Shown here one piece after another: positions 1,724 through 50,358 of a stretch of 64,000 nt of DNA. This DNA comes from Fibrobacteria bacterium (GTDB taxonomy: Bacteria; Fibrobacterota; Fibrobacteria; UBA11236). Each line of letters opens with the position of its first letter. The stretch's first letter is position 1. Under the pieces are notes generated by a model. It was not told the DNA's origin. It saw only the letters and a list, made by a program, of their open reading frames with translations, and did not search any database. Made by a program: the position numbers and the translations under genes. The stretch covers positions 1,292-65,291 of the forward strand of contig JBJHDK010000002.1 in assembly GCA_050486505.1 (NCBI GenBank), in the 5' to 3' direction.

Positions 1724-1735
1724 AACCGGAAAAGG

Positions 1736-7255: not shown

Positions 7256-7326
7256 GGATTCAAGTTAGGCAGGGAGGCTCTTTTTGTACACTATACCCCC
7301 ATGTTTCCGCCAGGCTGTCCCCGTTC

Positions 7327-10300: not shown

Positions 10301-10668
10301 TGTTCTGGGAAGCCGGGCGGGCATGGAATGGATCGATGTGGGATGCTGAGTTGTTCTCCCCCTCGGCGTGGACGCCGGAGCGTCGGGCTGACGGCTGGTA
10401 CCAAAGCGTGGGCGGAGGCCTCAAGCTGAACGCGCGCATCTACCACAACTATCCTTTTCTCGTGTACTTTCAGGCCGCGCGCGCGCTTTCGGGCCTACCC
10501 GACGGCGAAGGCGGATTCATCGCCTTGGACAACGTGCGCGTCGCCGGTTTCGAAACTCCCGCCAGCCGCATCGAGTTCGGCGTGAGCTTCGGGCTCTACA
10601 GCGGCCTGCTCACCCGCAGAAGCGAGCGCCACCCCCTGAATCCGGAGTCGCCCTTTGCCAGGCGCTAG
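7327..10668 (+). CDS. Secreted multidomain protein: N-terminal HExxH zinc-metallopeptidase-like domain, TolB/PD40-type beta-propeller repeats, C-terminal beta-rich Omp85-like region
   Basis: Signal peptide MTRHALCALAALFLLHGAHA from the internal Met of track ORF 7249..10668; HEFAHL...FAEGVAQYE motifs; repeats of the PDG(E/T)RIAF / SPDGERI(L/A) type; C-terminal alternating hydrophobic strands (GFAFTYY, LKLNARIYHNYPFLVYF, RIEFGVSFGLY). Confidence 0.8.
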   Translation: MTRHALCALAALFLLHGAHAGGFTLNRNAAHIDWRTAETEHFRFHYPRELEDVAGHIAGIAEEVAADKLARYAITLPNKVEFVVRDDIFSNGWANALQNTMTVWATDWDFPVRGTHNWIRDVVTHEFAHLVSIQSGSKLPSFLQGVVAGFEGYYNAPLQPRLATIFPFTHQPAWFAEGVAQYESELSGYDAWDSHRDMLLRISALENRLLPIERMSVFAGNALEYELGPYTQGFALTRFIAERYGDEAVLRLWAENARIHRQTMSGSMQRVLGKSDREVFREWRSEITARYTDQVRDLGELHQGQKLTSKGFYNYYPRWDAKGEGVFFVSNAGRDDFRATLGRVALEDTVKPEEERFEPVPGIRGFFDVAADDSTFLYASARERDRNGVHTLDIYQRNLRRDARFFERQDPTEKRFTRDLNAVHPNYAPDGTRIAFVYAEASNFFLAVAPVPEGDSLDAEDVRTLFPPPELLERRFGFNIYTPKFSPDGERILFSWFDGAERNIGIINADGSGFQGLVTGPEDARDPEWDPDGNSFYYASDKTGIFNLYRFDLTTGDTEPVTNVLGGAFLPSVSPDGERIAYVNYDRDGFSIYVLHDPVRVNVPAASHLEQRHATSAPPALEFAGLGRSYTPVPTRGILTPILFGQQTLAATREKGVIPEQGVTKWLAGASGYLTDPVLKNELSAVLLAEIGNGFAYFGRHSALVSPDKESQLYVDITNNATPVTLQASFFRGNLNTFDTVTVRDQPQPGGGVADEQLRQDYALTFRSVEAAAAYNLFDAQAVGTWDRPSHVRMALGYDWNDFNFYDLGGGQGFAFTYYKSLRLTTSLNLHGSGYSDKGLVAPRGFAAILAHTFRESDLFGCDSDYISDCFDFEGGALRPRYQTYRFHELDAGATYGRAMPWSRNASIVASVFASSLADWSLTRSELAADTLDRFFERGLFLRGYPFLRDIESLAFGGENSITLSLDLNQPLIADIYRNYWTVFVEDLYLHLFWEAGRAWNGSMWDAELFSPSAWTPERRADGWYQSVGGGLKLNARIYHNYPFLVYFQAARALSGLPDGEGGFIALDNVRVAGFETPASRIEFGVSFGLYSGLLTRRSERHPLNPESPFARR

Positions 10669-15511: not shown

Positions 15512-16648
15512 TCAGCGCACGGCGTACTTGGCCAGCGCTTCGGAAGCCGGAGAGGCCACCGGTTTGACGAGATACCGGATATCGGGCCACGTTCCGGTGA
15601 GAATCACGGCATATCCTTGGTCGACACCCGTGGCGACGTATGACGACATGTCGCCGCCGAAGGATTCTTCGGTGGCGAGGTCGCCCGTGTGCGTGCGTGT
15701 CGCCAAGTCGATCTTCTCCACGCCGCCTTCCAAGTCGCCGTAGCCGGCGACGCCGGCGATGTACCAGACACCATCATGAACGGACGCGGCAATCGGATTA
15801 CGAAAGTTCAGGGGAATGGTGTCGGTGATCGTGCGCGTGGCGGCGTCGATCACGAGCACCAGCGACGTGTCATTCGCTTGCCACTGGTGATCGAGGCGTT
15901 GCAGGGCGACGAAAACATTGCCGCCGTGCGCCGCGACAAGGGACATGCGCGGGACATTCGTCGAGGAGTCGCGTGAATACGCCGACAGGTCGATCGAATC
16001 CCGGGCACCGCCGTCGATGGCATCGGGATCAACGATCAGGAGGTGGGTGGAATTATAGCGCGGAATCCACGCCTTGCCGCCGGCGATGGCCACACCGTAG
16101 GGATTGGAGTTCGGCCCTGCCTGAACGTCCAGGGTGATGTTGCGGCCGGGACGATTTCCCTCGAATCCCGTCACGACGCCGATCGAGCGGTCGAGCAGAT
16201 AAACCCTGCCGTCCGCGGCGGCGACCGAGGGATCGGATCCGATCGACCCCACGCTCTGGCGGATGCGCCCCGCCACGGGATCGATGACGCTCACCCCGCC
16301 TTCCACGTAATCGGTTTCCGTGACGACGACGTGGCCATCCGCGGTGAACGCAAGCGAGGTAGGAGGCAGAAGCTGCGGATAGTAAGCCGTAATGATCCCG
16401 GTGGAAACATCCACAGCGGCCACACCGGGCTCCGACGCGTGGCGGTTCCCTGCATAGAGAATACCGTCGCGGTATGCGAGTCCGGAGACATCGGTCAGGC
16501 TGTCCACCGACTTTCCGACCCAGGCGGAATTCGTGCCCGAGACACCGGAATTCCCGGAAGGGCCGGAATCGAAAAGGTTGCAGGCGGAGAGCAACAGGGC
16601 GGTCGCCCCGAGAAGCCCGATGCGTGGAAGGGAGTGATGTGTTTTCAT
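15512..16648 (-). CDS. Beta-propeller surface lipoprotein, BtuG-like (cobalamin-binding partner of BtuB in Bacteroidota)
   Basis: Lipobox LLLSAC; repeated propeller-blade pattern; immediately downstream of the B12-riboswitch-controlled TonB receptor. Confidence 0.6.
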   Translation of the reverse strand: MKTHHSLPRIGLLGATALLLSACNLFDSGPSGNSGVSGTNSAWVGKSVDSLTDVSGLAYRDGILYAGNRHASEPGVAAVDVSTGIITAYYPQLLPPTSLAFTADGHVVVTETDYVEGGVSVIDPVAGRIRQSVGSIGSDPSVAAADGRVYLLDRSIGVVTGFEGNRPGRNITLDVQAGPNSNPYGVAIAGGKAWIPRYNSTHLLIVDPDAIDGGARDSIDLSAYSRDSSTNVPRMSLVAAHGGNVFVALQRLDHQWQANDTSLVLVIDAATRTITDTIPLNFRNPIAASVHDGVWYIAGVAGYGDLEGGVEKIDLATRTHTGDLATEESFGGDMSSYVATGVDQGYAVILTGTWPDIRYLVKPVASPASEALAKYAVR

Positions 16649-16657
16649 GTAGTTCCT

Positions 16658-18628
16658 TTACAGGTTGAGGGAAAGACCGAGCGACCAGGTCCGACCGCTT
16701 CGGGGACTGTAGACGAAGTCCCGATACTGTCGGTCGGTGAGATTTCGGACATCGAGGGAGAGTCTGATCGGGCCGCGATGCAAGGCACCGTGGGCACCCC
16801 ACTCCACCTCGGCATCCCGGCGCGATACGGGAAGGTTGGCTTCGCCCGGATACCATGGGCTCCGGAAACCGAGCGTCGGTCCCAGGCGCGCGCCCTCGAA
16901 CGGCTTGGCGAAGAATCCCGCGTGCGCCTCGACGGGACTGTGGTGCGCGGGGCGGTTTCCCGCGTGCAGTCCCTCGGTGATCTCCGCGCGCGACAGGGCG
17001 GCCGATGCCGCGGCTTCGAAACGGCGCGAATCCCATCCCCCTGAAAGTTCAAGACCGCGCACTTGGTAATCCGCACGGTTCTCGTACAGCAGAAAGGGAG
17101 AAGCGCCGCGCGCGCCAAGGCGGATCGGGTCGGTGTGAAGATTCCAGTATGCCTCCCAACGCGCGCTCCATGCCCCATGACCGAGGCCGTGCAGGATCGA
17201 AACCCCCGACGTTTCCTCCGGGCGCAGCGCTGTGTTCGCCTGCACGCCGTGGTTGTCGCCCAGCAATTCGCCGGAAGAAGGCGCGCGCTGCTCATGCTTG
17301 GCCACGGCCGCGAAGATCCCCACGGTCGTTTGCCATTGCAGTGCGGCACGCAATGTGGATGGCATGCGCGCCACCGAGACCCGATCTCCCTCGGGTGCGT
17401 CGGGATAGGCGCGCACCGCATCGGCATCGAAACGCACCGCCGCCGCCCGCGCCTCCAGCGTTGCGTTCAGGAACGGCGTGATGCCGTGATCCATGCGCCA
17501 CCCGAGCAGTGCCTCCAGCCTGCGCCCCGCGGGCGCGGACATGTTTTGCGAAAACGGCGTTTCGCGCGGATCGACGGTTTCGGCACGCAAATGAGCGTCC
17601 GTCGCGAAGGCCAGTGTCCCGGTCAGCGGAAGCCGCGCGCGCGCGTCCACCCCGGCGGATGTCGAGACCCGTTCCAACGCGTGCGAGAGATGGCCCAGCG
17701 TGCGACCGGGATCGCGATACGCGTCGGTGGCGCGATGCGCCTGCACGCCCGCCTCCCAGGACATGATCTCACCGTGATGCCGCGCGCGCCAGGCCCCCAT
17801 CCATGCCTCGCGCACCGTGTAGGCGCTTGATCCGGTGCCGAGCAACCCGGGATATTCCTTGCGCGATTCCAGCCAAAGCAGGGAGACGTCCTGGCCAAAA
17901 AACCCGTTTCCGGCGCGGGCCGAGGCACGGACCCCCCGGCTCCAGTACCCGTTGTTCCGCATGCGCGTGACACCGTCGTCGTCCGGATTGTGGATCGTGC
18001 CGTTGTCGTTGAACCATGGGTAATCGTTGCGGGCATGCTGGCCCTGCACACCGATCGACCATTGCGTCACCCCGTTTCCGCGAACGGTCACGGCGGACTC
18101 CGCGGTTCCATGCGAGCCACCCCGGGCGTGCGCTTCGGTTCGGTCGGCACCGTGGGAGGACAAATCGATGCGGGCCAGCATGCCGGAACCGACGACGTCG
18201 GGATCGACCCCGGTGCGCGCCTCCAGCGACGTGAACCAAAGCAACGGCCACTTGGAAAGATCGGGCGCGGGGTCGCCATCCTGGTTGAGGCGCATTCCGT
18301 CGACGTAGATCTCGATGGATGAGGCGCGCGCGCCGCGAAAACTCAATTCGGAGTAGCCGCCCAGCCCGCCCTGCCGGCGCACGCGAAAACCCGGCAACGA
18401 AGCGATCGCATCCTCAAGGGTCGCGAAACGGCGCAGGGCCTCGCCCTCGATGCGATGCGTGTCGGGTGAGGAGGACTCACTGCTGCGGCCGTACGCCTCC
18501 GTTCCCGGCAACTCGAGCGCTTCGGGCGTGACGCCATCGTCCGCGGCGACGGAAACCGCAAGGACAAACGGCACGGCGCGGGCGAAGGTCCGCGCAAAGA
18601 TCCGCTTTCCCGTAGGGACGTGCGGCAT
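16658..18628 (-). CDS. btuB: TonB-dependent outer-membrane receptor, BtuB-like (cobalamin)
   Basis: Plug and barrel motifs; C-terminal ...SLGLSLNL; start at internal Met MPHV (RBS AAGGAAGG upstream) rather than the track start 18709, which falls inside a palindrome; cobalamin riboswitch upstream. Confidence 0.8.
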   Translation of the reverse strand: MPHVPTGKRIFARTFARAVPFVLAVSVAADDGVTPEALELPGTEAYGRSSESSSPDTHRIEGEALRRFATLEDAIASLPGFRVRRQGGLGGYSELSFRGARASSIEIYVDGMRLNQDGDPAPDLSKWPLLWFTSLEARTGVDPDVVGSGMLARIDLSSHGADRTEAHARGGSHGTAESAVTVRGNGVTQWSIGVQGQHARNDYPWFNDNGTIHNPDDDGVTRMRNNGYWSRGVRASARAGNGFFGQDVSLLWLESRKEYPGLLGTGSSAYTVREAWMGAWRARHHGEIMSWEAGVQAHRATDAYRDPGRTLGHLSHALERVSTSAGVDARARLPLTGTLAFATDAHLRAETVDPRETPFSQNMSAPAGRRLEALLGWRMDHGITPFLNATLEARAAAVRFDADAVRAYPDAPEGDRVSVARMPSTLRAALQWQTTVGIFAAVAKHEQRAPSSGELLGDNHGVQANTALRPEETSGVSILHGLGHGAWSARWEAYWNLHTDPIRLGARGASPFLLYENRADYQVRGLELSGGWDSRRFEAAASAALSRAEITEGLHAGNRPAHHSPVEAHAGFFAKPFEGARLGPTLGFRSPWYPGEANLPVSRRDAEVEWGAHGALHRGPIRLSLDVRNLTDRQYRDFVYSPRSGRTWSLGLSLNL

Positions 18629-18691
18629 GATTCCTTCCTTCCGCGGGGCTGGGCCGCGGAACGATTGTCTGCGTCTGTCGAGGGGGCGGGC

Positions 18692-18719
18692 GTAGGGGCA
18701 AATAATCATTTGCCCCTAC
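18692..18719. repeat. 28-bp palindrome copy 1 (GTAGGGGCAAATAATCATTTGCCCCTAC), extended by flanking GGGCGGGC/GCCCGCCC
   Basis: Read directly; lies in the btuB 5' leader between the riboswitch aptamer and the start codon; near-identical copy at 62963-62990. Confidence 0.8.
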
Positions 18720-18804
18720 ATCGCCCGCCCTCGTCCCGAAGAGCAGCGCGTGAACCCGCAGGTGAGTCTTCTGGCTTGCGGCGGGAACCCCTGTTGGGGG
18801 GATC

Positions 18805-18985
18805 CGGAAGTCTTCCGCCTTCCCGCCCGGCGCCCCGTTCCCCGAAGGGGGGGGATGGCCTGGACAGTGGCTGGCGCGCGCAGTTGCGGGCGCCGGGAAA
18901 ACATCAACCGCTTACAGCGACGAGCTCGCTCCCGATTCGCACGGGATTCCTCGTTATGCCCTTCCGAACCGTTCGGAGGGCTCCC
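18805..18985 (-). ncRNA. Cobalamin (adenosylcobalamin) riboswitch
   Basis: The minus strand reads ...AGGAATCCCGTGCGAATCGGGAGC...GCTGTAAGCGG...GCAACTG...GCCACTG...GGGAAGGC. This matches E. coli btuB leader blocks (AGGGAAUCCAGUGCGAAUCUGGAGCUGAC...GCAGCGGUAAGG) plus the B12 box GCCACTG and GGGAAGGC. Sits upstream of a TonB receptor. Confidence 0.8.
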
Positions 18986-19107
18986 TGTGAGCGAATGGAA
19001 TAGTAGTCAATGCGGATAGCGGGGCGTCAAACGGGCGACCCCACGGGTCGCCCGTACATGAATCGATGCCGAAGGAATGTAGGGCCGAGCCGCTGGCTCG
19101 CCCGAAA

Positions 19108-24276: not shown

Positions 24277-24486
24277 TGTAACACGAAACCGCTTCGTTCG
24301 CCTTCCGTTTTCACGGAATCGGAACCCCGGGGGCAAAACTGCCGGAGATCGGGCCGAAAACCGTCCTCCCGTCCGCCTCCCTGATTGATTCTGCCCGCCG
24401 GTCTAGGTAAGTTTCCCCGACAGCAAGGGGATACGCCGGCCCGGGACTTTTCACCCCGGAGCGCCCGATCCTCCGGAGACCGCCGC

Positions 24487-26058
24487 ATGAAAGTCCTCTT
24501 CCTGAACCCTCCCTATTTCCCGATGTTTTCACGGGAATCCCGCAGCCCGAGCGTGACCAAGTCCAGCACCCTGTACTGGCCCATGTTCATGTGCTACGCC
24601 GCAGGTTGCGTCGAGGAGGACGGGAACGAATTGCTGGTGCTCGACTCCCCGGCCATGGACCTGGATCTCGCCGCCACGCTCGAAAAGGTGAAGGCCTTCA
24701 AGCCCGACTTTGCCGTCCTGAACACCTCGACACCCTCCATCAACAACGACATGCGCGTCGGCAAGGCGATCAAGGAAGCCGTGGGATGCCCCATTGCCAT
24801 GATGGGAACGCACGCCACCGCAGAACCGATCGAGATCCTCGAGCGCGAGCCCGCCATCGACTACGTCATCATGGGCGAGGCGGACTACACCGCCCGTGAG
24901 CTGGTGCGGCACCTGCGCGGCGACGGTCCCGACGCGATCGCGAAGGTCGCGGGAATCGCCTACCGCACGGGGGACGACTTCCATAAAACCCCCGAGCGCC
25001 CGAAGATCGAGGATCTCGACTCCCTGCCGTGGGTCAGCAAGGTGTACCGCAAGCACCTGTTCTCCTGCTACAAGCGTTACTTCTACGGGGCGAACATCAA
25101 CCCCCTCATCGTCATCCTTTCGGGACGCGGGTGTCCGTTCCGCTGCACCTACTGCGTCATCCCCCAGACGTTGACCGGCCACACCTACCGCAAGCGCTCC
25201 ATCGGCGATGTCGTGGACGAACTGGAATACATCAAATCCGCGTTCCCGGATCTGGGCGAAGTGTTCTTCGAGGACGACACCTTCACGGCCCACCCCACCC
25301 GCACCGCCGAACTTTGCGACGAGATCGTCAGGCGCGGGTTGAAGATCACCTGGTCCGCCAACGCCCGCGCCGACGTGAAGCCGGATGTCTTGTTGAAGAT
25401 GAAGCAGGCAGGGTGCCGGGAACTCTGCGTGGGCTTCGAATCCTGTTCCACCGATGTGCTCAAGAACGTCAAGAAGGGTCTGGCCAACGGCATGTCGGAA
25501 CGCTTCATGGAAGGCGCCAACAAGGCGGGCATCCTCATCCACGGCTGCTTCATGGTGGGGAACCTCGGCGACACCCCGGAAACCCTGCAGGCCACGCTCG
25601 AGTTCGCGAAAAAACTGAACCCGAATACCGCACAGTTCTATCCCATCATGGCCTATCCCGGAACCTCCGCCTACGAAGAGGCACGGGCGCGCGGCGAACT
25701 CGCTTCCGAAGACTACGACAAATGGCTCGACAAGGACGGCCAGCACAACACCACCGTCATCCGCAAAGGGCTGACCTCGCAGCAGCTGGTTGATTTCTGC
25801 GACCGCGCGCGGCGCGAATTCTACCTCCGTCCCCGCTACGTGTGGAAGCAGGCGATGATGGCCCTGACCAACAGCCGCGAGCGCTACCGCGTCTTCCGCG
25901 GCGCGGGCACCCTCTTCCGGCATCTCTTCCGCAAGCACGGAGCGCCGCAGGCGGCCAGCGAATACTCCGGGCGCCCCAAGGAGCCCTCGGCCCGCGAATT
26001 GACGGCCGCCCAGAAGGTGTCCTCCACCGAACGGCAAACTGTTTCCACGGACGCGTGA
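24487..26058 (+). CDS. B12-binding-domain radical SAM protein (class B radical SAM)
   Basis: N-terminal cobalamin-binding-like domain, then CPFRCTYC (CX3CX2C) radical SAM cluster motif; 523 aa from the internal ATG of the track ORF. Confidence 0.85.
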   Translation: MKVLFLNPPYFPMFSRESRSPSVTKSSTLYWPMFMCYAAGCVEEDGNELLVLDSPAMDLDLAATLEKVKAFKPDFAVLNTSTPSINNDMRVGKAIKEAVGCPIAMMGTHATAEPIEILEREPAIDYVIMGEADYTARELVRHLRGDGPDAIAKVAGIAYRTGDDFHKTPERPKIEDLDSLPWVSKVYRKHLFSCYKRYFYGANINPLIVILSGRGCPFRCTYCVIPQTLTGHTYRKRSIGDVVDELEYIKSAFPDLGEVFFEDDTFTAHPTRTAELCDEIVRRGLKITWSANARADVKPDVLLKMKQAGCRELCVGFESCSTDVLKNVKKGLANGMSERFMEGANKAGILIHGCFMVGNLGDTPETLQATLEFAKKLNPNTAQFYPIMAYPGTSAYEEARARGELASEDYDKWLDKDGQHNTTVIRKGLTSQQLVDFCDRARREFYLRPRYVWKQAMMALTNSRERYRVFRGAGTLFRHLFRKHGAPQAASEYSGRPKEPSARELTAAQKVSSTERQTVSTDA

Positions 26059-26741
26059 ACGCCCCTCTGAGAATCGCCGTCCTCGCCTCGGGGGGCGGCT
26101 CCAACTTCCAGGCCCTTCTGGATCATGCCCGCGCCGGAGACCTCCCGGCGCGGTTCGTTTTCGTGGCATCCAACAACAGCAGGGCCGGAGCACTCGAGCG
26201 GGCAAGGTCCGCCGGGATTCCAGCCCACCACGTCAGTGCCCGCACCGAAGGATCGGAAGAGGCCGCCGTTGCGCGCCTCCTGTCCCTGCTCGACGCGCAT
26301 TCGCCGGACCTGCTGGTGCTCGCGGGCTTCATGAAAAAAGTCCCCGACGAGATTCTCGCCCGCATGAAAAACCGCGTGGTCAATATCCATCCGGCGCTGC
26401 TCCCCGAATTCGGAGGCGCGGGAATGTACGGCGCCCACGTGCACGAGGCCGTCGTGAACGCCGGCCGCAAGGAGTCGGGGATGACCGTGCACATGGTCAA
26501 CGGCGAATACGACAAGGGACAGGTCGTGCTGCAGCGCCGCGTCTCCCTTCCTTCCGGCGCCGACGCGGATGAAGCCGGCCGGCGCGTGCTCGCGCTGGAA
26601 CACGACAGCCTCTGGCGTGTTCTCAAAGGCTTCGCGGACGGCGACATCGTTCCCACGGAATACGATGATCCCGCACGGGCCGTCCGCATCAACCCCGATT
26701 GGGCGGCGCGCATGCAGGCGCTCGCCCCCCCCAACGCGTGA
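26055..26741 (+). CDS. purN: Phosphoribosylglycinamide formyltransferase
   Basis: LRIAVLASGGGSNFQAL N-terminus and conserved His/Asp region (HPALLP); GTG start overlapping the rSAM stop (GTGA). Confidence 0.8.
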   Translation: MNAPLRIAVLASGGGSNFQALLDHARAGDLPARFVFVASNNSRAGALERARSAGIPAHHVSARTEGSEEAAVARLLSLLDAHSPDLLVLAGFMKKVPDEILARMKNRVVNIHPALLPEFGGAGMYGAHVHEAVVNAGRKESGMTVHMVNGEYDKGQVVLQRRVSLPSGADADEAGRRVLALEHDSLWRVLKGFADGDIVPTEYDDPARAVRINPDWAARMQALAPPNA

Positions 26742-27394
26742 GAGCGGACCCCTGGCCCGCGCTGCTCGCGCACGATCTTGCCTTCGCGGCGCGCGGGCCC
26801 GTCTGCGGGATCGACGAAGTCGGGCGCGGCCCCCTCGCGGGAAACGTGGTGGCGGCCTGTGTCATTCTCGACCTCGGGAATGACGGGGGTTCCCTTCCCG
26901 GCCTGAACGACTCCAAACGGGTCTCTCCGGTGAAGCGCTCCCTTCTGGACGCGCGTATCCGGGAGACCGCCGTCGCGTTCTCCATCGGTGAAGCGACTCC
27001 CCGGGAAATCGACGACATCAACATCCTTCAGGCCACTTTTCTCGCCATGCGTCGCGCCATTGACGCCTTGCCGGTGCGCCCGGGCCTCCTCCTTGTGGAC
27101 GGGAACCAAATACTCCCAGGCATCGACATCCCGCAAGTCTCACTCGTCGGAGGCGACGGGCTCTCCGCCTCCATCGCCGCGGCGTCGATCCTTGCGAAGG
27201 TTGCCCGCGACCGGCAGCTCGAGCAGGCGGGGATGCAATGGCCGGGATACGGGTTCGAGCGGCACAAGGGTTATGGCACCGCCGAGCATCGCAAAGCACT
27301 CCTCCACCAAGGGTTCACGCCCCTGCACCGGAAGACATTCTGCAGCGCGATTCTGGATGCACGCGAATCACCGATCACGGAGGTTCCCCGATGA
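26738..27394 (+). CDS. rnhB: Ribonuclease HII
   Basis: GIDEVGRGPLAGNVV...DSK catalytic blocks; start uncertain (GTG 26738 overlapping the purN stop, or TTG 26699 as in the track). Confidence 0.8.
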   Translation: MRADPWPALLAHDLAFAARGPVCGIDEVGRGPLAGNVVAACVILDLGNDGGSLPGLNDSKRVSPVKRSLLDARIRETAVAFSIGEATPREIDDINILQATFLAMRRAIDALPVRPGLLLVDGNQILPGIDIPQVSLVGGDGLSASIAAASILAKVARDRQLEQAGMQWPGYGFERHKGYGTAEHRKALLHQGFTPLHRKTFCSAILDARESPITEVPR

Positions 27395-28401
27395 GGGCCT
27401 CGAAGGCAAAGCCAGCCCCCTCGAAAATGCGTTCCTGGGTTTCAAACGCAGCGCGTATCGGTATCGGCATCTTCGTGGTGTGGGCGCTGGTACGCACCGG
27501 TGCGCTCAAGCCCGAGTTGCTCGGAGACGCAATCACGGGGCATCCGTTCCTGTATGCGACGGCCTTTTTCGTGTATCTCGTGCCGCTGCAAATCCTCGCC
27601 TGCGGACGCTGGTACTGGCTCCTGCGTTCGGCGAAAGTTTCCATCACCCTGAAGGAAACCGCTCGCCTGCATTTCACGGGTCTTTTTTTCAGCGGCTTTC
27701 TTCCCGGCGGCATGGGGGGAGATCTGGTGAAGGGATGGTACCTCGTGCGGGGACGCGACCGGATCGAAGGCGCGGCGGCGCTGGGGACGCTGGTGGTCGA
27801 TCGCATCATCGGCCTCTTCGGACTCATCGGTCTGGCGGCACTGACCACGCTGTTCAACGCCGGGGTATGGAAAGCTTCGCCCGTCCTGGCAACGCAGTCG
27901 ACCGTTATTCTCGCGGCTGCCGGCGGCATGCTGGCGATGACCTTCGCGTATCTCTCGCCTTGGAAGCCACGCTGGCTTCCGGAACCTGCACGCGAGGGTA
28001 ATGCCCGGGGATTCCTGATGGAACTCGCAGCGGCGCTCACGGCTTTCCGGAGCGCACCGCGCGTCTTCGTCGGAGGCATCCTCATTTCCATGATGGTACA
28101 CTTCTGCCTCGTCACGGTGTACGCCCTTTGCGGCGGCGCCCTCGAGGTCCCGCTCTCCTTCCGCTTGCATGCCTATGTCGCGCCCGTGCTGACCTTCGTG
28201 AACGGAATTCCCATTTCGCCTGGGGGCCTCGGCGTGGGCGAAGCGGCGGGCATGGTGCTCTACGATCTGGCCGGCGCGCCGCACTCCCAAGCGGAGATCC
28301 CCGCACTCGTGCGAACGATCGTGTTGATGACCGCGCTTCTCAGCGCGCCGGCATATCTCTTCATCAAGCAACAGAGGACGGGCCGTTCCGAAAACGCCTG
28401 A
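27391..28401 (+). CDS. UPF0104 / lysylphosphatidylglycerol-synthase-TM-region-like (flippase-like) membrane protein
   Basis: About 336 aa, 7-8 TM helices, family-typical GGxGxxEA-like block (PGGLGVGEAAGM); ATGA overlap with rnhB. Confidence 0.65.
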   Translation: MRASKAKPAPSKMRSWVSNAARIGIGIFVVWALVRTGALKPELLGDAITGHPFLYATAFFVYLVPLQILACGRWYWLLRSAKVSITLKETARLHFTGLFFSGFLPGGMGGDLVKGWYLVRGRDRIEGAAALGTLVVDRIIGLFGLIGLAALTTLFNAGVWKASPVLATQSTVILAAAGGMLAMTFAYLSPWKPRWLPEPAREGNARGFLMELAAALTAFRSAPRVFVGGILISMMVHFCLVTVYALCGGALEVPLSFRLHAYVAPVLTFVNGIPISPGGLGVGEAAGMVLYDLAGAPHSQAEIPALVRTIVLMTALLSAPAYLFIKQQRTGRSENA

Positions 28402-30866: not shown

Positions 30867-32381
30867 GTGACCACGGAGCCACCCCCGAACACAGAACTGC
30901 AGACGCAGGACACCCCCCGTCCCTCCCCCGAGGCCGAGACGCGTCTCCTGCGTCGCAAGATCCGACGCACCATCGCCGCCGCGGCCATCGGGGCGCACCT
31001 ACTCGGCATTCTATCGTCGTTCGACGCCGTCATGTCGACGCGCACCTCGCAAGGCGCGGTGGCTTGGGTCATCTCGCTCAACACCTTCCCCTGGCTCGCC
31101 GTGCCCGCCTACTGGGTATTCGGGCGCACCAAGTTCCAGGGATACGTGATCGGCCGGCAAGCCGACGACTCGGTGCTGCATGCGGCCGTCTCCGAAAAGC
31201 TCGACCGCTTGCGCGAGCACGCCGCGACATTCCCGCCCGAGGCACGCCACCTCAAGGTGATCGAGCGCCTGGCGAAAATGCCGATGGTCGGAGGCAATCG
31301 CGCCGAACTTCTGATCGACGGCGACGCGACCTTCTCGAGCATGTACGCCGGCATCGAGGCGGCGGAGCGCTACGTGCTGATGCAGTTCTACATCGTGCGC
31401 AACGACTCGGTGGGAAACGCTTTCCAGCGGCTGTTGATGCGCAAGGCCCGCGAGGGCGTGAAGGTGTACTTCCTGTACGACGAAATCGGCAGCCACCGCT
31501 TGCCGGGTTCGTGGCTGCGCGAGATGGCCGCGTCGGGCGTGGAGGTGCGGCGCTTCCATTCGACACAGGGACGGGGAAACCGCTTCCAGCTGAATTTCCG
31601 CAACCACCGCAAAATCCTCGTGACCGACGGAACGAAGGGTTGGGTGGGGGGACTCAACCTGGGCGACGAGTATTTGGGGCGCGATCCTCGCATCGGTCCA
31701 TGGCGCGACACGCACCTGAAGCTGGAGGGCCCCGCCGCGCTTTCGCTTCAATTGTCTTTCGCCGAGGATTGGCACTGGGCGGCGGGGGCGCTTCCCGAGC
31801 TCGACTGGGATCCCGTTCCGGCCGAGGAGCCCGGCCTGCCGGTGCTCGTGCTTCCCTCGGGTCCCGCCGACCGTTTCGAAACCGCGAGCCTGATGGCTCA
31901 GAACGCCATTCATTCGGCGCAGCACCGGCTGTGGATCTCGAGCCCGTACTTCGTGCCCGACGAAGGGGTCATCGCCGCGCTCAAACTGGCGGCCTTCCGA
32001 GGCGTCGACGTGCGCGTGCTCATCCCCGAGCGTCCCGACAACATCCTGACCTATTTCGCGGCCTATGCCTTCCTCGGCCCGCTGCTCGAGGCCGGGGTCG
32101 CGGTCCACCGATATGAGGACGGATTCCTGCACGCGAAAACGATGCTGATCGACGACGATCGCTCCGCCGTGGGAACGGTGAATTTCGACAATCGCTCCTT
32201 CCGCCTCAACTTCGAGATCACGGCCTGGGTCGTGGACGAGGGCTTCGCCACGGGAATGGAAGCGATGTTCAGCGACGACTTTTCCCGGGCCCGGCAGATG
32301 GTGCCCGAGGATGTTTTCGGGCGTCCCCTGTGGTTCCGGGCACTTTCCCGGGCGGCGCACCTGACCGCCCCGTTGTTGTAA
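30867..32381 (+). CDS. cls: Cardiolipin synthase (phospholipase D family, two HKD motifs)
   Basis: Two N-terminal TM helices; HRKILVTDG and HAKTMLIDD HKD motifs. The track start is a GTG that sits inside a 12-bp hairpin stem, so the exact start is uncertain. Confidence 0.8.
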   Translation: MTTEPPPNTELQTQDTPRPSPEAETRLLRRKIRRTIAAAAIGAHLLGILSSFDAVMSTRTSQGAVAWVISLNTFPWLAVPAYWVFGRTKFQGYVIGRQADDSVLHAAVSEKLDRLREHAATFPPEARHLKVIERLAKMPMVGGNRAELLIDGDATFSSMYAGIEAAERYVLMQFYIVRNDSVGNAFQRLLMRKAREGVKVYFLYDEIGSHRLPGSWLREMAASGVEVRRFHSTQGRGNRFQLNFRNHRKILVTDGTKGWVGGLNLGDEYLGRDPRIGPWRDTHLKLEGPAALSLQLSFAEDWHWAAGALPELDWDPVPAEEPGLPVLVLPSGPADRFETASLMAQNAIHSAQHRLWISSPYFVPDEGVIAALKLAAFRGVDVRVLIPERPDNILTYFAAYAFLGPLLEAGVAVHRYEDGFLHAKTMLIDDDRSAVGTVNFDNRSFRLNFEITAWVVDEGFATGMEAMFSDDFSRARQMVPEDVFGRPLWFRALSRAAHLTAPLL

Positions 32382-37907: not shown

Positions 37908-39101
37908 TTATTGCCCCAGCACCTTCCGAAACGCGGTGATCACATCCGCCACATCCTTGTCCGACAACGCCGCCGACAACGGCAGGGATACCGTGCGATC
38001 ACCGATGTCAGCCGCCACGGGACACTCGGAACGCTTCCAGCCCAAGGCCTTGCGATAGTACGGATGCTCGCACAGCGCGCGGTAATGAACGCCCGCGCCG
38101 ATTCCTTCCGCCGTCAGTGCGGCAAGCACGAAATCCCGCTTTCGTCCCGCGTTCTTGCGAATCAGCGGCGTGTAGAGATGGTATGCGTGCCGCTCGTCCT
38201 TCCCAGGCTCCGCGGGAAGCGTCACCGGCAGATCGGCAAACGCCTCCTGATATGCCTTCCAGATCGCACGGCGGCGACGCCAGTTGGTTTCCACGCGGCG
38301 TAACTGGGGAGTCCCGATCGCCGCCTGCAAGTCGGTCATGTTGTACTTGTACCCGAGGTCGACCACATCGTAGTGCACATACCCTGAATCGGAATAGCGC
38401 CGCCACGCGTCCTTGCTCATGCCGTGCAGCGCCAGCCGCTTGGCACGATCCGCCACGGCGGCGCCCCGGGCAAGGATCATGCCCCCTTCGGCGGTGGTCA
38501 CGTTCTTCGTGGCGTAGAAACTGAAGCAGCCAGCATCGCCGAAGGTCCCCGCCTTGCGGCCGCGCCATTCCGTCTCAATGGCATGCGCGCAATCCTCGAT
38601 GACCTTGATCCGGTGCGTTCGCGCGATGTGCAGGATCGCATCCATGTCGCAGGCGCGGCCCGCGAAGTGGACCGGAAGAACCGCCTTCGTGCGCTTCGTG
38701 ACCTTGCGCGCGATTTCATCCGGACTGATGTTGAAAGTGACCGGATCGCAATCGGCGAGCACGGGCGTCGCGCCCGCGTGCAGGATCGCGTTGGCCGTCG
38801 CGCAAAACGTCATGGGCGTCGTGATCACTTCGTCGCCCGGGCCGACGCCGAGGGAAAGAATGGAGAGGTGCAGCGCCGCCGTGCAGGAATTCACCGCCAC
38901 GGTTCTCGCCGGATCCATGCCCTTGTACGCGGCGAAAGCCGCCTCGAATTCCGCGACCTTCGGGCCGGTACCGATCCAGCGCCGCCGCAGGGAATCGGTG
39001 ACGCCCGCGATCTCCTCGCGGCCGATGCGCGGAGCGCCGAAGACCAGGAAGTCCTTGCGAGAGCGGACGGGTCTTCCCCCGTCGATGGCGAGTTTCGGCA
39101 T
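37908..39101 (-). CDS. DegT/DnrJ/EryC1/StrS family sugar aminotransferase
   Basis: PLP-dependent fold type I; conserved Lys block (FSFYATKNVTTAEGG). Confidence 0.9.
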   Translation of the reverse strand: MPKLAIDGGRPVRSRKDFLVFGAPRIGREEIAGVTDSLRRRWIGTGPKVAEFEAAFAAYKGMDPARTVAVNSCTAALHLSILSLGVGPGDEVITTPMTFCATANAILHAGATPVLADCDPVTFNISPDEIARKVTKRTKAVLPVHFAGRACDMDAILHIARTHRIKVIEDCAHAIETEWRGRKAGTFGDAGCFSFYATKNVTTAEGGMILARGAAVADRAKRLALHGMSKDAWRRYSDSGYVHYDVVDLGYKYNMTDLQAAIGTPQLRRVETNWRRRRAIWKAYQEAFADLPVTLPAEPGKDERHAYHLYTPLIRKNAGRKRDFVLAALTAEGIGAGVHYRALCEHPYYRKALGWKRSECPVAADIGDRTVSLPLSAALSDKDVADVITAFRKVLGQ

Positions 39102-39161
39102 TGGGCAAAATTAACCGCCGCTCCGGCAAAGCGACGGGAGTCGTTCGTATCTTGACGCCTT

Positions 39162-40916
39162 ATGTCGATCGCGGGCTGCATCCATCCTCCCGGACACGGA
39201 CACGTGTTGGCGCCGGTGGTGGAACTCCTCCATCCTCGCCGCAATCGCGACGCGACAGCCCGCGACGGGTATTTCACCCATGAGGCCCTGCATCTCGTCG
39301 AAACGGCCGCCCGCGAGCCTTGCGGGCATGCCGGTGAAGGGGTCAGGTGCTGGATCGACGGGCGCATCGACAACACCGCCGACCTGCTCAGGCGCTTCGA
39401 TCCCGAAGGAGACCCCCGGCCCGCCTTCCTTTTCGCCCGGGCGCATGCCCGCGGCCTTCTTGAGCAGGTGCTGCAAGCCGCGGACGGAGATTTTTTCGCC
39501 GTCGTGCACGATGCCCCCGCGCGCAGACTGTTTTTGTGTAACGACCGTCTGGGACTGCGGCCGGCGTACTTCGCGGAGGCGGCGCCGGGATTCTTGTTCT
39601 GTACGCGCCTGCGAGGATTCGCCGCCTTCCCCGGGTTCGCGCCCCGGATTTCGCCGGACGCGCTGGAATGCTTTCTGGATCTGGGACATTTCGTCGGCGA
39701 CCTGACGTGGTTCGAGGGTGTCCGCCAGCTTGCGCCCGCGACCCTGCTTGAGGTGGACACCGTCGACGGAAAAATCCGGGCGGCACGGAGGTACTGGACC
39801 TGGGAGCGCATCGGGCGCAGGAGCATCGGACTCGAAGCGGCCGCCGAAGAACTGGGCGACCTGTTGCGCGATGCCGTCGCGCGCAGGATCCTTCCCGGAG
39901 AGCGCGTCGCGATCCTGCTGAGCGGGGGCCTCGACTCGCGCGCGATTCTCGCCTGTACCCTGCCGGAGCAATGCGCGGGAACGGCCACGTTCGGACAGCC
40001 GGGTTGCCGCGATCTTCTCTACGCGGAACGTGTCGCCCGCGCCGCCGGAGTTCCGCACCGCGCGCTCCCCCTGACGGAGCACGAATGGTTCCTCAACCGG
40101 CTCCACGCCGTCTGGAAGACCGACGGCATGAGCGGGCCCGCCGACCTGCAGGGATCGCGCTTTCTCGGCGACCTCCTCGCGATCTCCCCGGTGAACCTGA
40201 ACGGCTTCGCGGGCGACCTCGTCGCAGGCGGCAGCTATCTTGATCCGGCGCGCCTGGATACGCCGCCCGATGCCGCCTTCGCCGCGTCGCGTTACGGGCG
40301 CCACGCGCGCTGGTCCGACCCCGCGGACGCCTATTTCAGGTCGCCGCGCACCGACCCCTACATCCTCGCCAACAGGGTGCGACGACTCACCGTCTCCGGA
40401 ACCCTCGAAGTCGAAGACGCGATGGAGCAACGAAAGCCCTTCATGGACACGCGACTGCTCGAGTTCCTGTACTCCCTTCCCGAAGCGCACCGCCTGCACG
40501 GACGCGTGTACCTTCGCGCCATGTTGCGCCTGCGGCCCGACCTTTTCGCGCGCGTGCCATGGCAAAAAACCGGGCTCTCCCCACGCTTCGGAGACGGGTT
40601 TCCCGTGCGCGCATACTGCGCCGTCTTCCGCCGCCTGCAGCGCCTCGGCTGGCCCTCGGCCCCCACGGAGCTCGCCGACTTTCCCCGCTGGATCGCGGCG
40701 TCACCCGGCCCTTTCGGCACACTGCTCGAAGATCCTCGCGCACTCTGGCGCGACCTCGCGCCCGCGCGCCTGCACCATCACTTTCAGTGGCGCGCCCATC
40801 CCTCCGCCGCACAGGCGCGCCTTCAGTTGCAGGCCGCGGGCGTGGAAGCCTGGTTCCGCCAACTCTTCAACGGCACGCACCGCGACCCGGAAGTTTCCGA
40901 AGCACCGCCTGCATGA
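39162..40916 (+). CDS. Asparagine synthetase B-like protein (polysaccharide-cluster type; N-terminus lacks Cys2)
   Basis: AsnB-like synthetase domain with SGGLDS PP-loop; N-terminus MSIAGC rather than MC... Confidence 0.65.
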   Translation: MSIAGCIHPPGHGHVLAPVVELLHPRRNRDATARDGYFTHEALHLVETAAREPCGHAGEGVRCWIDGRIDNTADLLRRFDPEGDPRPAFLFARAHARGLLEQVLQAADGDFFAVVHDAPARRLFLCNDRLGLRPAYFAEAAPGFLFCTRLRGFAAFPGFAPRISPDALECFLDLGHFVGDLTWFEGVRQLAPATLLEVDTVDGKIRAARRYWTWERIGRRSIGLEAAAEELGDLLRDAVARRILPGERVAILLSGGLDSRAILACTLPEQCAGTATFGQPGCRDLLYAERVARAAGVPHRALPLTEHEWFLNRLHAVWKTDGMSGPADLQGSRFLGDLLAISPVNLNGFAGDLVAGGSYLDPARLDTPPDAAFAASRYGRHARWSDPADAYFRSPRTDPYILANRVRRLTVSGTLEVEDAMEQRKPFMDTRLLEFLYSLPEAHRLHGRVYLRAMLRLRPDLFARVPWQKTGLSPRFGDGFPVRAYCAVFRRLQRLGWPSAPTELADFPRWIAASPGPFGTLLEDPRALWRDLAPARLHHHFQWRAHPSAAQARLQLQAAGVEAWFRQLFNGTHRDPEVSEAPPA

Positions 40917-40940
40917 CGCGCAGGCAACAGGAGCCCCCCC

Positions 40941-41594
40941 ATGAGAATCGACATCTGGTCCGACATCGTCTGCCCCTGGTGCTACATCGGGAAGCGCCGC
41001 CTGGAACAAGCGCTGGAGGAGCTTCCCGACGGCGCCGCCCACCAAGTGGTCTGGAGAAGCTACGAGCTCAACCCGAACGCTCCGCGCGCGTCAACGGAAA
41101 CAACCCGTGACATGCTCGCGCGCAAATACGGGGTCGCCCCGGAAAAGGCAGTCGCCATGCAGGCACACGTCACTGCCATCGCGGAGGGCTGCGGACTCGA
41201 CTACCACCTCGACCAGACACGGCCCGAGAGCTCCTTCGACGCTCACCGGCTCGTGCATCTCGCCAAGGCCTCCGGATTGCAAGGTGAAATGAAGGAACGC
41301 CTGCTCCGTGCTTATTTCACGGAAGGCCTTTCCATCAACGACAAGGCTACGCTGATCCGCTTGGCCGAAGAGGTCGGACTGGGGGGAACCTCCGCGGCCG
41401 AAACCCTGGACGGGGACGCCTTCGCGGACGCCGTGCGCGCCGATGAAGAAGAAGCCCTGCGCATCGGAATCCGGGGCGTTCCGTTCTTCGTGTTCAATGG
41501 ATCCCTCGCGCTTTCGGGCGCGCAACCGGTGGAAACATTCCGGGAGGCGTTGATGGAAGCGGCAAGTGGAATGCCAAGAGGAGATGGAACCTGA
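40941..41594 (+). CDS. DsbA/FrnE family dithiol oxidoreductase
   Basis: DIVCPWCYIG active site; FrnE-like length. Confidence 0.85.
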   Translation: MRIDIWSDIVCPWCYIGKRRLEQALEELPDGAAHQVVWRSYELNPNAPRASTETTRDMLARKYGVAPEKAVAMQAHVTAIAEGCGLDYHLDQTRPESSFDAHRLVHLAKASGLQGEMKERLLRAYFTEGLSINDKATLIRLAEEVGLGGTSAAETLDGDAFADAVRADEEEALRIGIRGVPFFVFNGSLALSGAQPVETFREALMEAASGMPRGDGT

Positions 41595-41621
41595 AAGGAC
41601 GGCGTACGAGGACGGAACGCC

Positions 41622-43073: not shown

Positions 43074-44227
43074 CACGAGTTCAGGAAGGCGGGCAGTCCC
43101 CGCGCGTAAGCATCCCAATGCCAGCGCGTGCGCGCGACACGGCATGCAGCCGAGTGGGTTTCGTGGTTCCCGATCAATTGACGAAGGGCACGGGCGATAT
43201 CGTCGGGCGAAAACGCATCGGCCGCCACTCCCACACTCTCCTCTGCCAGCAAGGCCCTGTGGGCGGGATTGTCGCTGAACAACACGGGAATTCCGACCTG
43301 GACATAGTCAAAGATTTTATTGGAAAGCGTCAAGGCGAAGCTCTCGCACACCGGCTGCACGAGATGAATGCCGATGTGCGCGGCCGACATTTTCGAAGGG
43401 AGCGCTTCAAAGGGGACTGTCCCATGAAAAACGATACGGTCCCCGGCACCCGAGGCGAGCGCCTTTTCGCGCAACGATGCCTCCGCAACGCCGCCGCCAT
43501 AAACGTCGAGCGTGAGCCCGGGATGCGACGACATGACGACGAACAATTCCGGAAGCCCGCTTGCCTCCCGCAGGCTCCCCTGATACACGAGCTTCACGGG
43601 TTCGCCCGGGCGCGGGGATTCCGGCGAAGGTTCCCCCCCTCCTCCCCTGGCCTGCAACGGCATATTGGGCAAAAGGTGGAAGCGTACGCGGGGATGGCGG
43701 GCCTGCAGGCGTTCGAGAATCGCGGGGCTGACGGTGACGGCTTTTCGGATCAATGCGAAACCGGCATTTTCCCACGCCGTCCAGAACAGGCGGCGAGTGG
43801 CGCGGCTTCGCACCATCGGCGTTTCCAGGAACAACTCGTGGGAGTCGTACACGACCATGCGCCCGCGCAACCTCCCCCACAAGGCGAGCCAGAACAGCGG
43901 CGGGGCATCGAGGGAGATCCACACCCGGGCGGGCGTGCGCCACAGCAGGGGAAGCGACCGGAACATCCACGTCACGAATGCCGGCAGGAACCCCTGCAGG
44001 TGCGAGCGGCGCGTCAGAACGCGGATGTCGAACCCGTCCCAGGCAGGCCCCGGGGGATGCAAGGGTTGATCGCAGCAAATCACCGGCCGATAGCCGGCCT
44101 CGCGCAACGTCGTCGCGAGCTTGTAGCAGCGATGATCGGTCGACAGATCGGTGAGGATCGCGAGGAGAATCTCGGGGGAATCCTGCCCGGTCGATCCGGT
44201 GGATTGGTTGGGAAGGGGGGAAGTCAT
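43073..44227 (-). CDS. Glycosyltransferase (GT4-like)
   Basis: GT-B fold; C-terminal E-x7-E-like region (LSNKIFDYVQVGIPVL). Confidence 0.75.
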   Translation of the reverse strand: MTSPLPNQSTGSTGQDSPEILLAILTDLSTDHRCYKLATTLREAGYRPVICCDQPLHPPGPAWDGFDIRVLTRRSHLQGFLPAFVTWMFRSLPLLWRTPARVWISLDAPPLFWLALWGRLRGRMVVYDSHELFLETPMVRSRATRRLFWTAWENAGFALIRKAVTVSPAILERLQARHPRVRFHLLPNMPLQARGGGGEPSPESPRPGEPVKLVYQGSLREASGLPELFVVMSSHPGLTLDVYGGGVAEASLREKALASGAGDRIVFHGTVPFEALPSKMSAAHIGIHLVQPVCESFALTLSNKIFDYVQVGIPVLFSDNPAHRALLAEESVGVAADAFSPDDIARALRQLIGNHETHSAACRVARTRWHWDAYARGLPAFLNS

Positions 44228-44296
44228 GCGATTCCGGTGGAAAATGCAAAAAGGAAGACGGAGCGGCCGGGCGCCGCTTCATATCTTTGATTTTCC

Positions 44297-48696: not shown

Positions 48697-48843
48697 TTAC
48701 GAATTAAGAATTACGAATTTAACGCAGATGTCGCTGCCGCATGAAGAGTCCGTGCGCCATGCAAACGTGAATCGCCGAAGTCCGAGTTCAAGACGCCGCC
48801 CTTCATTCGTAATTCGTAATTCGTAATTCTTAATTCTTATCGC
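48691..48843. repeat. Heptamer-repeat inverted-repeat element, copy C: arms TAATTAC GAATTAA GAATTAC GAATTTA (48694-48721) and GTAATTC x3 TTAATTC TTATCGC (48809-48843), 87-bp core
   Basis: Arms are inverted complements; the dps stop (48694-96) and the hldE stop (48837-39) each fall inside an arm. Confidence 0.8.
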
Positions 48844-50288: not shown

Positions 50289-50358
50289 TTCTATGAAAAT
50301 TCGAAGCGCCGGACCCCACGAACCGCGATGTTTCGGCTGTAACTACATTCCGCCGACG

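Follow-up and report, generated by a model that had tools for sequence, protein, structure and literature searches.

Why should a cobalamin-binding radical S-adenosylmethionine (SAM) enzyme and a polytopic membrane protein of the UPF0104 family be packed into one run of overlapping genes with purN and rnhB, two housekeeping genes? This arrangement occupies positions 24487-28401 of a 64,000-nt stretch, hereafter the window, of contig JBJHDK010000002.1 from the Fibrobacteria bacterium assembly GCA_050486505.1, and a first-pass annotation of the window had singled it out as an unusual combination. We show that the four genes constitute a genuine, very compact operon. The explanation that we favour, with moderate confidence, is that the operon is specific to one lineage, serves co-expression and lies within a syntenic run of housekeeping genes; its first gene belongs to an uncharacterised, glycan-associated, HpnJ-like branch of the cobalamin-dependent radical SAM enzymes. 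According to this explanation, the four genes would be transcribed as a single unit, and their linkage would reflect co-expression and not a dedicated pathway.

The block consists of the radical SAM gene (24487..26058, ATG start, TGA stop, 523 aa), purN (26055..26741, GTG start, TGA stop, 228 aa), rnhB (26738..27394, GTG start, TGA stop, 218 aa) and the UPF0104 gene (27391..28401, ATG start, TGA stop, 336 aa), all on the forward strand. Every junction is a stop/start overlap of the NTGA type, as the first-pass annotation had reported: the purN GTG overlaps the radical SAM TGA (GTGA, 26055..26058), the rnhB GTG overlaps the purN TGA (GTGA, 26738..26741) and the UPF0104 ATG overlaps the rnhB TGA (ATGA, 27391..27394). 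These overlaps were read directly from the sequence, and the exact 523-, 228-, 218- and 336-aa products are also recorded on a 79,276-bp NCBI contig, so an independent gene caller picked the same four starts. All four frames show a coding GC pattern, with a GC content of 0.76-0.86 at third codon positions versus 0.44-0.50 at second positions in a window of 63% GC. No alternative start leaves the domains intact. The next downstream starts of purN (26163) and rnhB (26846) would delete conserved N-terminal motifs, the Pfam matches of the two products starting at residue 6 and residue 23, respectively, and upstream alternatives would produce long overlaps of 217 nt (purN, GTG at 25842) and 43 nt (rnhB, TTG at 26699). 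Alternative starts for these two genes are therefore implausible.

Single 4-nt gene overlaps are common among bacteria. When overlaps were counted across the window on a heuristic map of open reading frames (ORFs), a 4-nt overlap was possible in just 4 of approximately 30 same-strand adjacent gene pairs, three of the four falling inside the block. By this map, no other unit of the window is as compact as the block, and such compactness is locally unusual.

A Shine-Dalgarno-like GGAGA (24475..24479, forward strand) lies 7 nt before the radical SAM ATG, and a Shine-Dalgarno GGAGG within the 3′ end of rnhB (27379..27383, forward strand) lies 7 nt before the UPF0104 ATG. Because no obvious ribosome-binding site is visible in the sequence preceding the purN and rnhB starts, we propose that translation of these two genes probably begins by termination-reinitiation at the GTGA overlaps. 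Co-translation of all four genes, which the overlaps had been taken to imply, is likely, judging from the overlaps and the starts. Consensus scans found no sigma-70-like promoter in the 150-nt intergenic region 24337-24486 and no terminator downstream of the block; the results of both scans were at chance level and do not define the boundaries of the operon.

The first protein is, by its domains, a class B (cobalamin-dependent) radical SAM enzyme. It matches PF02310 B12-binding at residues 33-139 (42.1 bits versus a threshold of 32.1) and PF04055 Radical_SAM at residues 212-374 (73.5 versus 29.5 bits), and its CX3CX2C cluster motif reads CPFRCTYC at residues 216-223, with three cysteines that are invariant in the homologue alignment. 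The N-terminal cobalamin domain and the cluster motif named in the first-pass annotation are thus both confirmed. The C-terminal tail is variable and non-conserved from approximately residue 486, and hydropathy analysis of the protein revealed no strongly hydrophobic, transmembrane-like segments.

Among NCBIfam models, the best match is HpnJ (TIGR03471), which aligns over the full length at 369.1 bits and so misses the cut-off of 577.6. An alignment with annotated HpnJ proteins is likewise full-length and collinear at 33-35% identity (E = 2e-87). The scores against the methylase families PhpK, HpnR, KedN5 and TsrM-type were 30-111 bits (PhpK 111, HpnR 87), and the score against BchE (TIGR02026) was 165 bits, short of its cut-off of 481. 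On the basis of the latter value, we reject the BchE identity given by the JGI label 'anaerobic magnesium-protoporphyrin IX monomethyl ester cyclase'. The JGI labels on the members of the radical SAM cluster, whether BchE or 'YgiQ', are over-annotations. Sequence matches in the PDB were limited to distant class B enzymes, such as AprD4, TokK, TsrM and CysS.

Homologues sharing 60-90% identity with the enzyme all belong to Fibrobacterota, in keeping with an origin of the window in an uncultured, high-GC species of the class Fibrobacteria. The nearest relatives outside this phylum share 48-51% identity, and an enzyme encoded on plasmid 1 of Lawsonia intracellularis shares 41%. We placed the enzyme in a neighbour-joining (NJ) tree built from 477 columns with 100 bootstraps. 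The Fibrobacterota sequences formed a clade with 100% support, as did the HpnJ sequences, and the HpnJ clade had no Fibrobacterota members. A metagenomic HpnJ-like family (hereafter the sister family) and the Lawsonia plasmid enzyme joined the Fibrobacterota clade with a bootstrap value of 63%, true HpnJ being sister to this group. The N-terminal motif NPPYFPMFSR.SRSP.VTKSSTLY is common to the window enzyme and the sister family, and all of the Fibrobacterota and sister-family members tested against TIGR03471 scored 359-497 bits, under the cut-off. The clade of the window enzyme thus appears to be nested in an uncharacterised HpnJ-like family distinct from the HpnJ equivalogs.

The first-pass annotation had asked for a placement among the class B families and had assumed that such enzymes are typically C- or P-methylases. 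In the placement, the closest characterised family was HpnJ and not HpnP/HpnR, Fom3 or GenK. The methylase default did not survive because the closest characterised relative, HpnJ, is a proposed non-methylating ring-contraction enzyme. A knockout led to the proposal that HpnJ converts a hopanoid-linked sugar to a cyclitol by contracting its glucosamine ring, a reaction that has not been reconstituted, and in a similarity network HpnJ falls with MoeK5 and Fom3, methylases of sugars and phosphonates (PMC13459092, PMC9204698). As identified by its TIGRFAM model, HpnJ is confined to genomes with SHC and HpnH (10.1101/2025.07.29.667474).

The second and third genes encode a genuine, ordinary PurN and RNase HII, as judged from model scores and motifs. 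The purN product matches Pfam Formyl_trans_N and reaches 158.5 bits against TIGR00639 PurN, passing the cut-off of 150.1 by a small margin, and the PurN-type motif LASGGGSNFQAL read near the N-terminus of the translation fits the SG.GSN..A loop that binds glycinamide ribonucleotide (GAR). Given the PurN equivalog score and the GAR-loop motif, we reject the idea that this gene encodes a sugar N-formyltransferase tied to the radical SAM enzyme. The rnhB product scores 220.9 bits against NF000595 (cut-off 167) and 131 bits against PF01351 RNase_HII.

The fourth protein is polytopic, with hydrophobic segments and two PGGxG motifs at residues 105 and 277. It matches PF03706 LPG_synthase_TM (E = 8.8e-31, 107.9 bits versus 33.4) and TIGR00374 (59.7 bits versus a cut-off of 43.2). 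A PDB sequence search yielded no match. A fold search with its AlphaFold model (pLDDT 90.7, pTM 0.89) returned MprF for all of the top six PDB matches (probability 1.00, TM-score 0.57-0.66) and no other significant matches. Family models and predicted fold agree with the earlier description of a UPF0104 protein resembling the transmembrane part of lysyl-phosphatidylglycerol synthase. Against HpnL (TIGR03476, cut-off 195.65 bits), the protein gave no match at E <= 0.01, and a pairwise BLASTP comparison with HpnL revealed a shared PGGLG motif and nothing more. The model thus points to a stand-alone protein with the fold of the MprF flippase domain, and not to HpnL. Stand-alone PplT proteins are usually single-copy and have been proposed to be general lipid flippases, and pplT of Escherichia coli is co-operonic with clsB (10.1101/2022.03.11.483950); GpgF belongs to gpgSDF, the glucosamine-phosphatidylglycerol operon of Pseudomonas aeruginosa (PMC12713373). 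For both, flippase activity is predicted (10.1101/2022.03.11.483950, PMC12713373), and the function of HpnL is unassigned (10.1101/2025.07.29.667474). The window protein is most likely a general inner-membrane lipid translocator with putative flippase activity.

To what extent is this arrangement conserved? A scan of one genome per species yielded 80 Fibrobacterota loci, and 85 were retrieved in all. In the related-clade set of 26 species-level Fibrobacteria loci, in which the radical SAM enzyme is 70-90% identical, purN follows the radical SAM gene in 24 loci, rnhB is present in 25 and the UPF0104 gene in 21, with the order radical SAM-purN-rnhB kept in 24. A further contig with a 68% identical enzyme (L089) carries all four genes and, upstream of the radical SAM gene, a gene for a 515-aa MORN_2 protein. 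Intergenic gaps in the 26 loci are mostly between -4 and +30 nt, and 4-nt overlaps occur at differing junctions between genomes; what is conserved is the tight packing and not the individual overlaps. The block is part of a longer conserved run, DegP(-) / 6-phosphogluconate dehydrogenase / Omp85 / radical SAM / purN / rnhB / UPF0104 / RsmE(-) / small radical SAM(-), and because this run of unrelated housekeeping genes continues beyond the block, adjacency need not mean a shared pathway. In a protein search with RNase HII, none of the top 120 matches was named as Fibrobacter, and the few named ones were metagenome-assembled genomes of Fibrobacteria/Fibrobacterota plus one of Clostridiales.

The block is also broken in some members of the clade. 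In genome GFS_4934, the UPF0104 gene is located on another contig (L173) beside RsmE, and an Rhs fragment follows rnhB. This fragment (L039, 12965-13942) is a toxin-like Rhs/YD-repeat C-terminus with an DYFGARYYDADIGLWISPDP motif directly after rnhB; with the UPF0104 gene on L173 of the same genome, it suggests an Rhs-associated rearrangement at L039. In two loci (L010, 12883-15149, and L012, 12898-15131), a metallophosphoesterase gene and a gene for a Wzx-like Polysacc_synt flippase occupy the UPF0104 position after rnhB, which may represent a non-orthologous replacement by another flippase type. In two others (L018, 12924-15055, and, in a similar manner, L028), rnhB is followed by two tandem LPG_synthase_TM (UPF0104) paralogues, the first of which overlaps the rnhB stop. 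One locus (L030) is without purN.

The radical SAM gene itself can part from its partners. On chromosome OY970309.1, Omp85-purN-rnhB-UPF0104 is intact without the radical SAM gene, which is located 0.73 Mb away between a family 4 glycosyltransferase (GT4) gene and a methyltransferase gene and beside two family 2 glycosyltransferase (GT2) genes. Because OY970309.1 is nested inside the clade in the NJ tree, this relocation is derived. In 57 Fibrobacter-type loci, with radical SAM enzymes 63-69% identical to that of the window, purN, rnhB and UPF0104 genes were found within 10 kb in none, and the radical SAM gene is apparently monocistronic and divergent from a MORN-repeat gene. The orthologue in Fibrobacter succinogenes and F. 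intestinalis (L080 is F. intestinalis ATCC 43854) shares 66-67% identity with the window enzyme. The product of the latter, a MORN_2-repeat protein of ~200 aa encoded divergently upstream (~9356-9979, reverse strand), recurs in L003-L005 and 52 Fibrobacter-type loci. A DedA/VTT protein gene near the Fibrobacter radical SAM gene was considered as a flippase partner and dismissed since the divergent MORN-repeat gene intervenes and there is no operon link. The neighbours in another locus (L033) encode a Macro domain protein and Ddl. Adjacency of the radical SAM gene to the other three genes is therefore neither fortuitous nor obligatory, and the gene is a separable element. Accordingly, the synteny check proposed in the first-pass annotation came out both ways: one Fibrobacteria lineage retains the block in its tight form, but the radical SAM gene is located elsewhere with unrelated neighbours in Fibrobacter, Fibrimonadales and OY970309.1.

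The contexts of relatives provide the clearest indication of what the enzyme may act on. The first relatives outside Fibrobacterota (48-51% identity), which are under the HpnJ cut-off, are located in glycan clusters, and a metagenome scan with the sister-family alignment yielded 80 more loci. Among the 61 sister-family loci with room for the neighbouring gene, one GT2 family is encoded directly downstream on the same strand in 40 and anywhere in the locus in 58. Other sister-family neighbours encode GT4s, polyprenyl-phosphate sugar transferases, GT9, Alg13/14-like proteins, Wzx, PMT_2 and methyltransferases. The Lawsonia enzyme is encoded amid genes for GT2s, GalE, a SIS protein, a HAD hydrolase, a GHMP kinase and methyltransferases, and an Eleftheria homologue adjoins a PIG-L deacetylase and glycosyltransferases. 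Within the phylum, two Fibrimonadales genomes have the orthologue (64-65% identity) inside Wzx/GT2/Wzi/FdtA/DegT operons. Many class I methyltransferases surround relatives of the radical SAM enzyme, which suggests that methylated sugars are made in these clusters. In two loci (L087, 4710-6152, and L177, 5419-6915), a second, more divergent B12-binding radical SAM gene either immediately follows the HpnJ-like gene or is separated from it by a few genes.

The proposed substrate of HpnJ is a lipid-linked glucosamine that is supplied by the GT2 HpnI (PMC13459092, PMC9204698). No hpnI, hpnK or hopanoid gene was present in the window or in the 85 Fibrobacterota loci examined. From the glycan-cluster contexts and the kinship with HpnJ, we infer that the window enzyme likely modifies a sugar on a lipid-linked envelope glycan or glycolipid; the envelope or lipid-linked role that the first-pass annotation had considered is thus the best-supported direction. 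In such a scheme, a 5′-deoxyadenosyl radical, with cobalamin as the auxiliary cofactor, would remodel the sugar, and the substrate-supplying glycosyltransferase would be encoded elsewhere in the genome. The chemistry might be either an HpnJ-type ring contraction to a cyclitol or a C-methylation.

Several points weigh against this explanation. The operon has no glycosyltransferase, deacetylase or sugar-nucleotide gene in it or beside it, so the link to glycans is drawn entirely from relatives; the Fibrobacterota clade is joined to the glycan-cluster family at an NJ bootstrap value of 63%; and the chemistry of HpnJ is known from a knockout, not from biochemistry (PMC13459092, PMC9204698). The radical SAM enzyme is 63-69% identical even to that of Fibrobacter, above the conservation of PurN or RNase HII within the clade, and this conservation and the housekeeping neighbourhood could likewise be accounted for by a core substrate other than a glycan. 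Furthermore, the four genes are tightly conserved while the UPF0104 protein diverges down to 33% identity, which, together with the hpnJ-hpnL precedent and the flippase swap at L010 and L012, could point to a real functional link.

One such link would be a dedicated module, resembling hpnJ and hpnL, in which the radical SAM enzyme works on the cytoplasmic side of the membrane to remodel a glycolipid's sugar head group and the flippase-like UPF0104 protein moves the product to the outer leaflet, with purN and rnhB as passengers. The pairing has a precedent in bona fide hpnJ operons that end in an HpnL (UPF0104) gene and also contain 4-nt overlaps, namely hpnJ-hpnI-hpnL in Paraburkholderia graminis (HpnL 340 bits versus 195.65) and hpnI-hpnJ-hpnK-HpnL-like in Mycetohabitans, and gpgSDF of P. 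aeruginosa couples glycolipid synthesis with a predicted UPF0104 flippase (PMC12713373). The co-occurrence of both genes in 21 of 26 clade genomes and in L089 in spite of the divergence of UPF0104, the tandem paralogues in L018 and L028 and the Wzx-like flippase at the same position in L010 and L012 point in the same direction. We nevertheless regard this as unlikely because, when the radical SAM gene moved in OY970309.1, the UPF0104 gene stayed with purN-rnhB, the two are unlinked in GFS_4934, and a UPF0104 gene is near the radical SAM gene in none of the 57 Fibrobacter-type and 2 of 82 sister-family loci. Moreover, the window protein is outside the HpnL subfamily, which it resembles at the motif level alone, and the operon is without a glycosyltransferase. 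Less probable still, in our estimation, is that the radical SAM enzyme has a housekeeping role, with a cofactor, RNA or protein as its substrate, and shares growth-linked expression with purN, rnhB and RsmE. That every one of the 85 Fibrobacterota loci retrieved carries it, at 63-90% identity, would agree with a core function, as would the DegP, 6-phosphogluconate dehydrogenase, Omp85 and RsmE neighbours in most lineages, the Macro domain and Ddl neighbours in L033 and the apparently monocistronic gene in Fibrobacter. However, every informative context of orthologues and nearest relatives is a glycan cluster, the closest characterised relative, HpnJ, has a lipid-linked sugar as its proposed substrate, and no relative was found beside genes for RNA, cofactors or ribosomally synthesized and post-translationally modified peptides. 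The least probable possibility, which is largely refuted, is fortuitous adjacency with mis-called starts, under which the overlaps would be annotation artefacts and the genes independently expressed. The failure of the consensus scans to find a promoter upstream or a terminator downstream and the lack of conservation of the exact overlaps would be compatible with it, but alternative starts truncate conserved domains or give long overlaps, an independent gene call yields identical products, order and tight spacing are kept in approximately 24 genomes, and the block accounts for three of the four 4-nt overlaps that are possible in the window. We therefore retain the lineage-specific co-expression operon with a glycan-associated first gene as our preferred explanation.

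In the window, the block is preceded by the genes for DegP (reverse strand), 6-phosphogluconate dehydrogenase (forward strand) and a secreted GSDH-like protein (reverse strand) and is followed, in order, by those for a Na/Pi cotransporter, two unknown ORFs, a cardiolipin synthase and an O-acetylhomoserine sulfhydrylase. The cardiolipin synthase gene (30867..32381, forward strand; TIGR04265 391.5 bits versus a cut-off of 290) is located 2.4 kb downstream of the UPF0104 gene; in none of the related loci examined did such a gene appear downstream of UPF0104. On the other side, a cobalamin riboswitch (18744..19003, reverse strand, 67.6 bits) lies upstream of a gene for a TonB-dependent receptor with a Plug domain (16658..18709, reverse strand), and a 378-aa protein without a family match (15512..16648, reverse strand) is encoded in the same riboswitch unit. 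From its components, 15512-19003 (reverse strand) looks like a B12 uptake unit, which would speak for import of B12 but not for use of the cofactor by the radical SAM enzyme. Among six relatives scanned, the riboswitch is found beside DegP in the three nearest (L008, L011, L012) and is absent in the more distant L018, L026 and L027. The B12 uptake unit that the first-pass annotation had noted is thus real as a riboswitch before a TonB receptor, but it is syntenic in the nearest relatives alone.

The only GT2 gene seen in the window, with a Glyco_transf_21 match, is located 23 kb from the block (4..1229, reverse strand, start at ~1211-1229) and runs off the window start. The gene for a thioredoxin/DsbD-like protein (1211..1735, reverse strand) may join it by the one other possible 4-nt overlap in the window. 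In many sister-family loci, a thioredoxin gene precedes and a GT2 gene follows the radical SAM gene, and the thioredoxin-GT2 pair of the window might be a displaced partner. As an HpnI-like partner, the window GT2 is probably unrelated, with a score of 29 bits against HpnI and a generic 29% identity over 114 aa to the sister-family GT2.

Further features of the window include an envelope-glycan gene group (37911-44278) consisting of genes for a DegT-family aminotransferase (37911..39110, reverse strand), an asparagine-synthase-like amidotransferase (39156..40913, forward strand), a DsbA-like protein (40917..41591, forward strand) and a GT4 (43076..44278, reverse strand). AT skew is unusually high (0.27) in the 42-44 kb bin. 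An HldE-like bifunctional PfkB kinase/cytidylyltransferase-like protein (48840..50342, reverse strand) suggests that the organism synthesizes an ADP-heptose sugar of the type found in lipopolysaccharide cores. The window also encodes a 496-aa protein with two nitroreductase-domain matches, a fused pair (5777..7264, reverse strand), and a 1140-aa protein with PD40/WD40-like beta-propeller repeats (7246..10665, forward strand).

Taken by itself, the operon is an ordinary compact operon of mixed function and of modest interest, and it illustrates that genes may overlap tightly and keep their order without sharing a pathway. Of more use is a by-product, the recognition of a large and uncharacterised HpnJ-like branch of the cobalamin radical SAM enzymes in organisms other than hopanoid producers, a branch that is almost always paired with a GT2 in surface-glycan clusters. 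An HpnJ-like enzyme is, moreover, fixed and highly conserved throughout Fibrobacterota, the cellulolytic rumen genus Fibrobacter among them. Should ring contraction or C-methylation of lipid-linked sugars prove to be their reaction, these enzymes would represent a new class of envelope sugar modification and a tractable handle on the chemistry of HpnJ, which has never been reconstituted, and envelope biogenesis would gain a B12-dependent step in organisms that seem to take up B12. A bolder idea, which we consider a long shot, is that the radical SAM enzyme and the PplT-type flippase are a non-hopanoid counterpart of hpnJ/hpnL that would convert the aminosugar head group of a lipid-linked glycan or membrane glycolipid to a cyclitol and flip it outward, with the glycosyltransferase encoded elsewhere, and that, more broadly, the sister family represents an unrecognised route to carbasugars or C-branched sugars in surface glycans. 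The product would then be a bacterial analogue of bacteriohopanetetrol cyclitol ether and of archaeal calditol lipids.

Among known systems, the hpnI-hpnJ-hpnK-hpnL operon is the closest to the block. HpnJ has the same domain order and cluster motif as the window enzyme, and its operon likewise contains a UPF0104-family membrane protein gene and 4-nt overlaps. The two differ in that the window enzyme falls below the HpnJ cut-off (369 < 577.6 bits) and belongs to a separate clade, its partner membrane protein is not of the HpnL subfamily, and neither hpnI, hpnK nor a hopanoid gene is found in the window or the Fibrobacterota loci examined. The sister family, which may be called the 'rSAM-GT2' HpnJ-like family and includes the Lawsonia enzyme, shares the N-terminal motif and the grouping in the tree with the window enzyme, and the Fibrimonadales and OY970309.1 orthologues have a similar glycan context. 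In that family, a GT2 gene directly follows (40 of 61 loci), whereas purN and rnhB follow in the window; because all of its members are uncharacterised, it supplies context, not function. MoeK5, Fom3, GenK, HpnP/HpnR and BchE share superfamily and domain architecture with the window enzyme, but its scores against the methylase families and BchE are far under the cut-offs and much lower than its HpnJ score. By analogy of chemistry alone, the calditol synthase Cds of Sulfolobus and the QueE-type contraction may exemplify the type of reaction that is proposed for HpnJ, the conversion of a lipid-linked hexose to a five-membered cyclitol. With respect to the membrane protein, the window UPF0104 protein differs from MprF and similar proteins in having neither a fused synthase domain nor an adjacent lipid-synthesis gene. 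It shares the stand-alone architecture of YbhN/PplT of E. coli and GpgF of P. aeruginosa, and the clsB-pplT (ybhN) operon of E. coli is echoed in the window by the cardiolipin synthase gene 2.4 kb from the UPF0104 gene.

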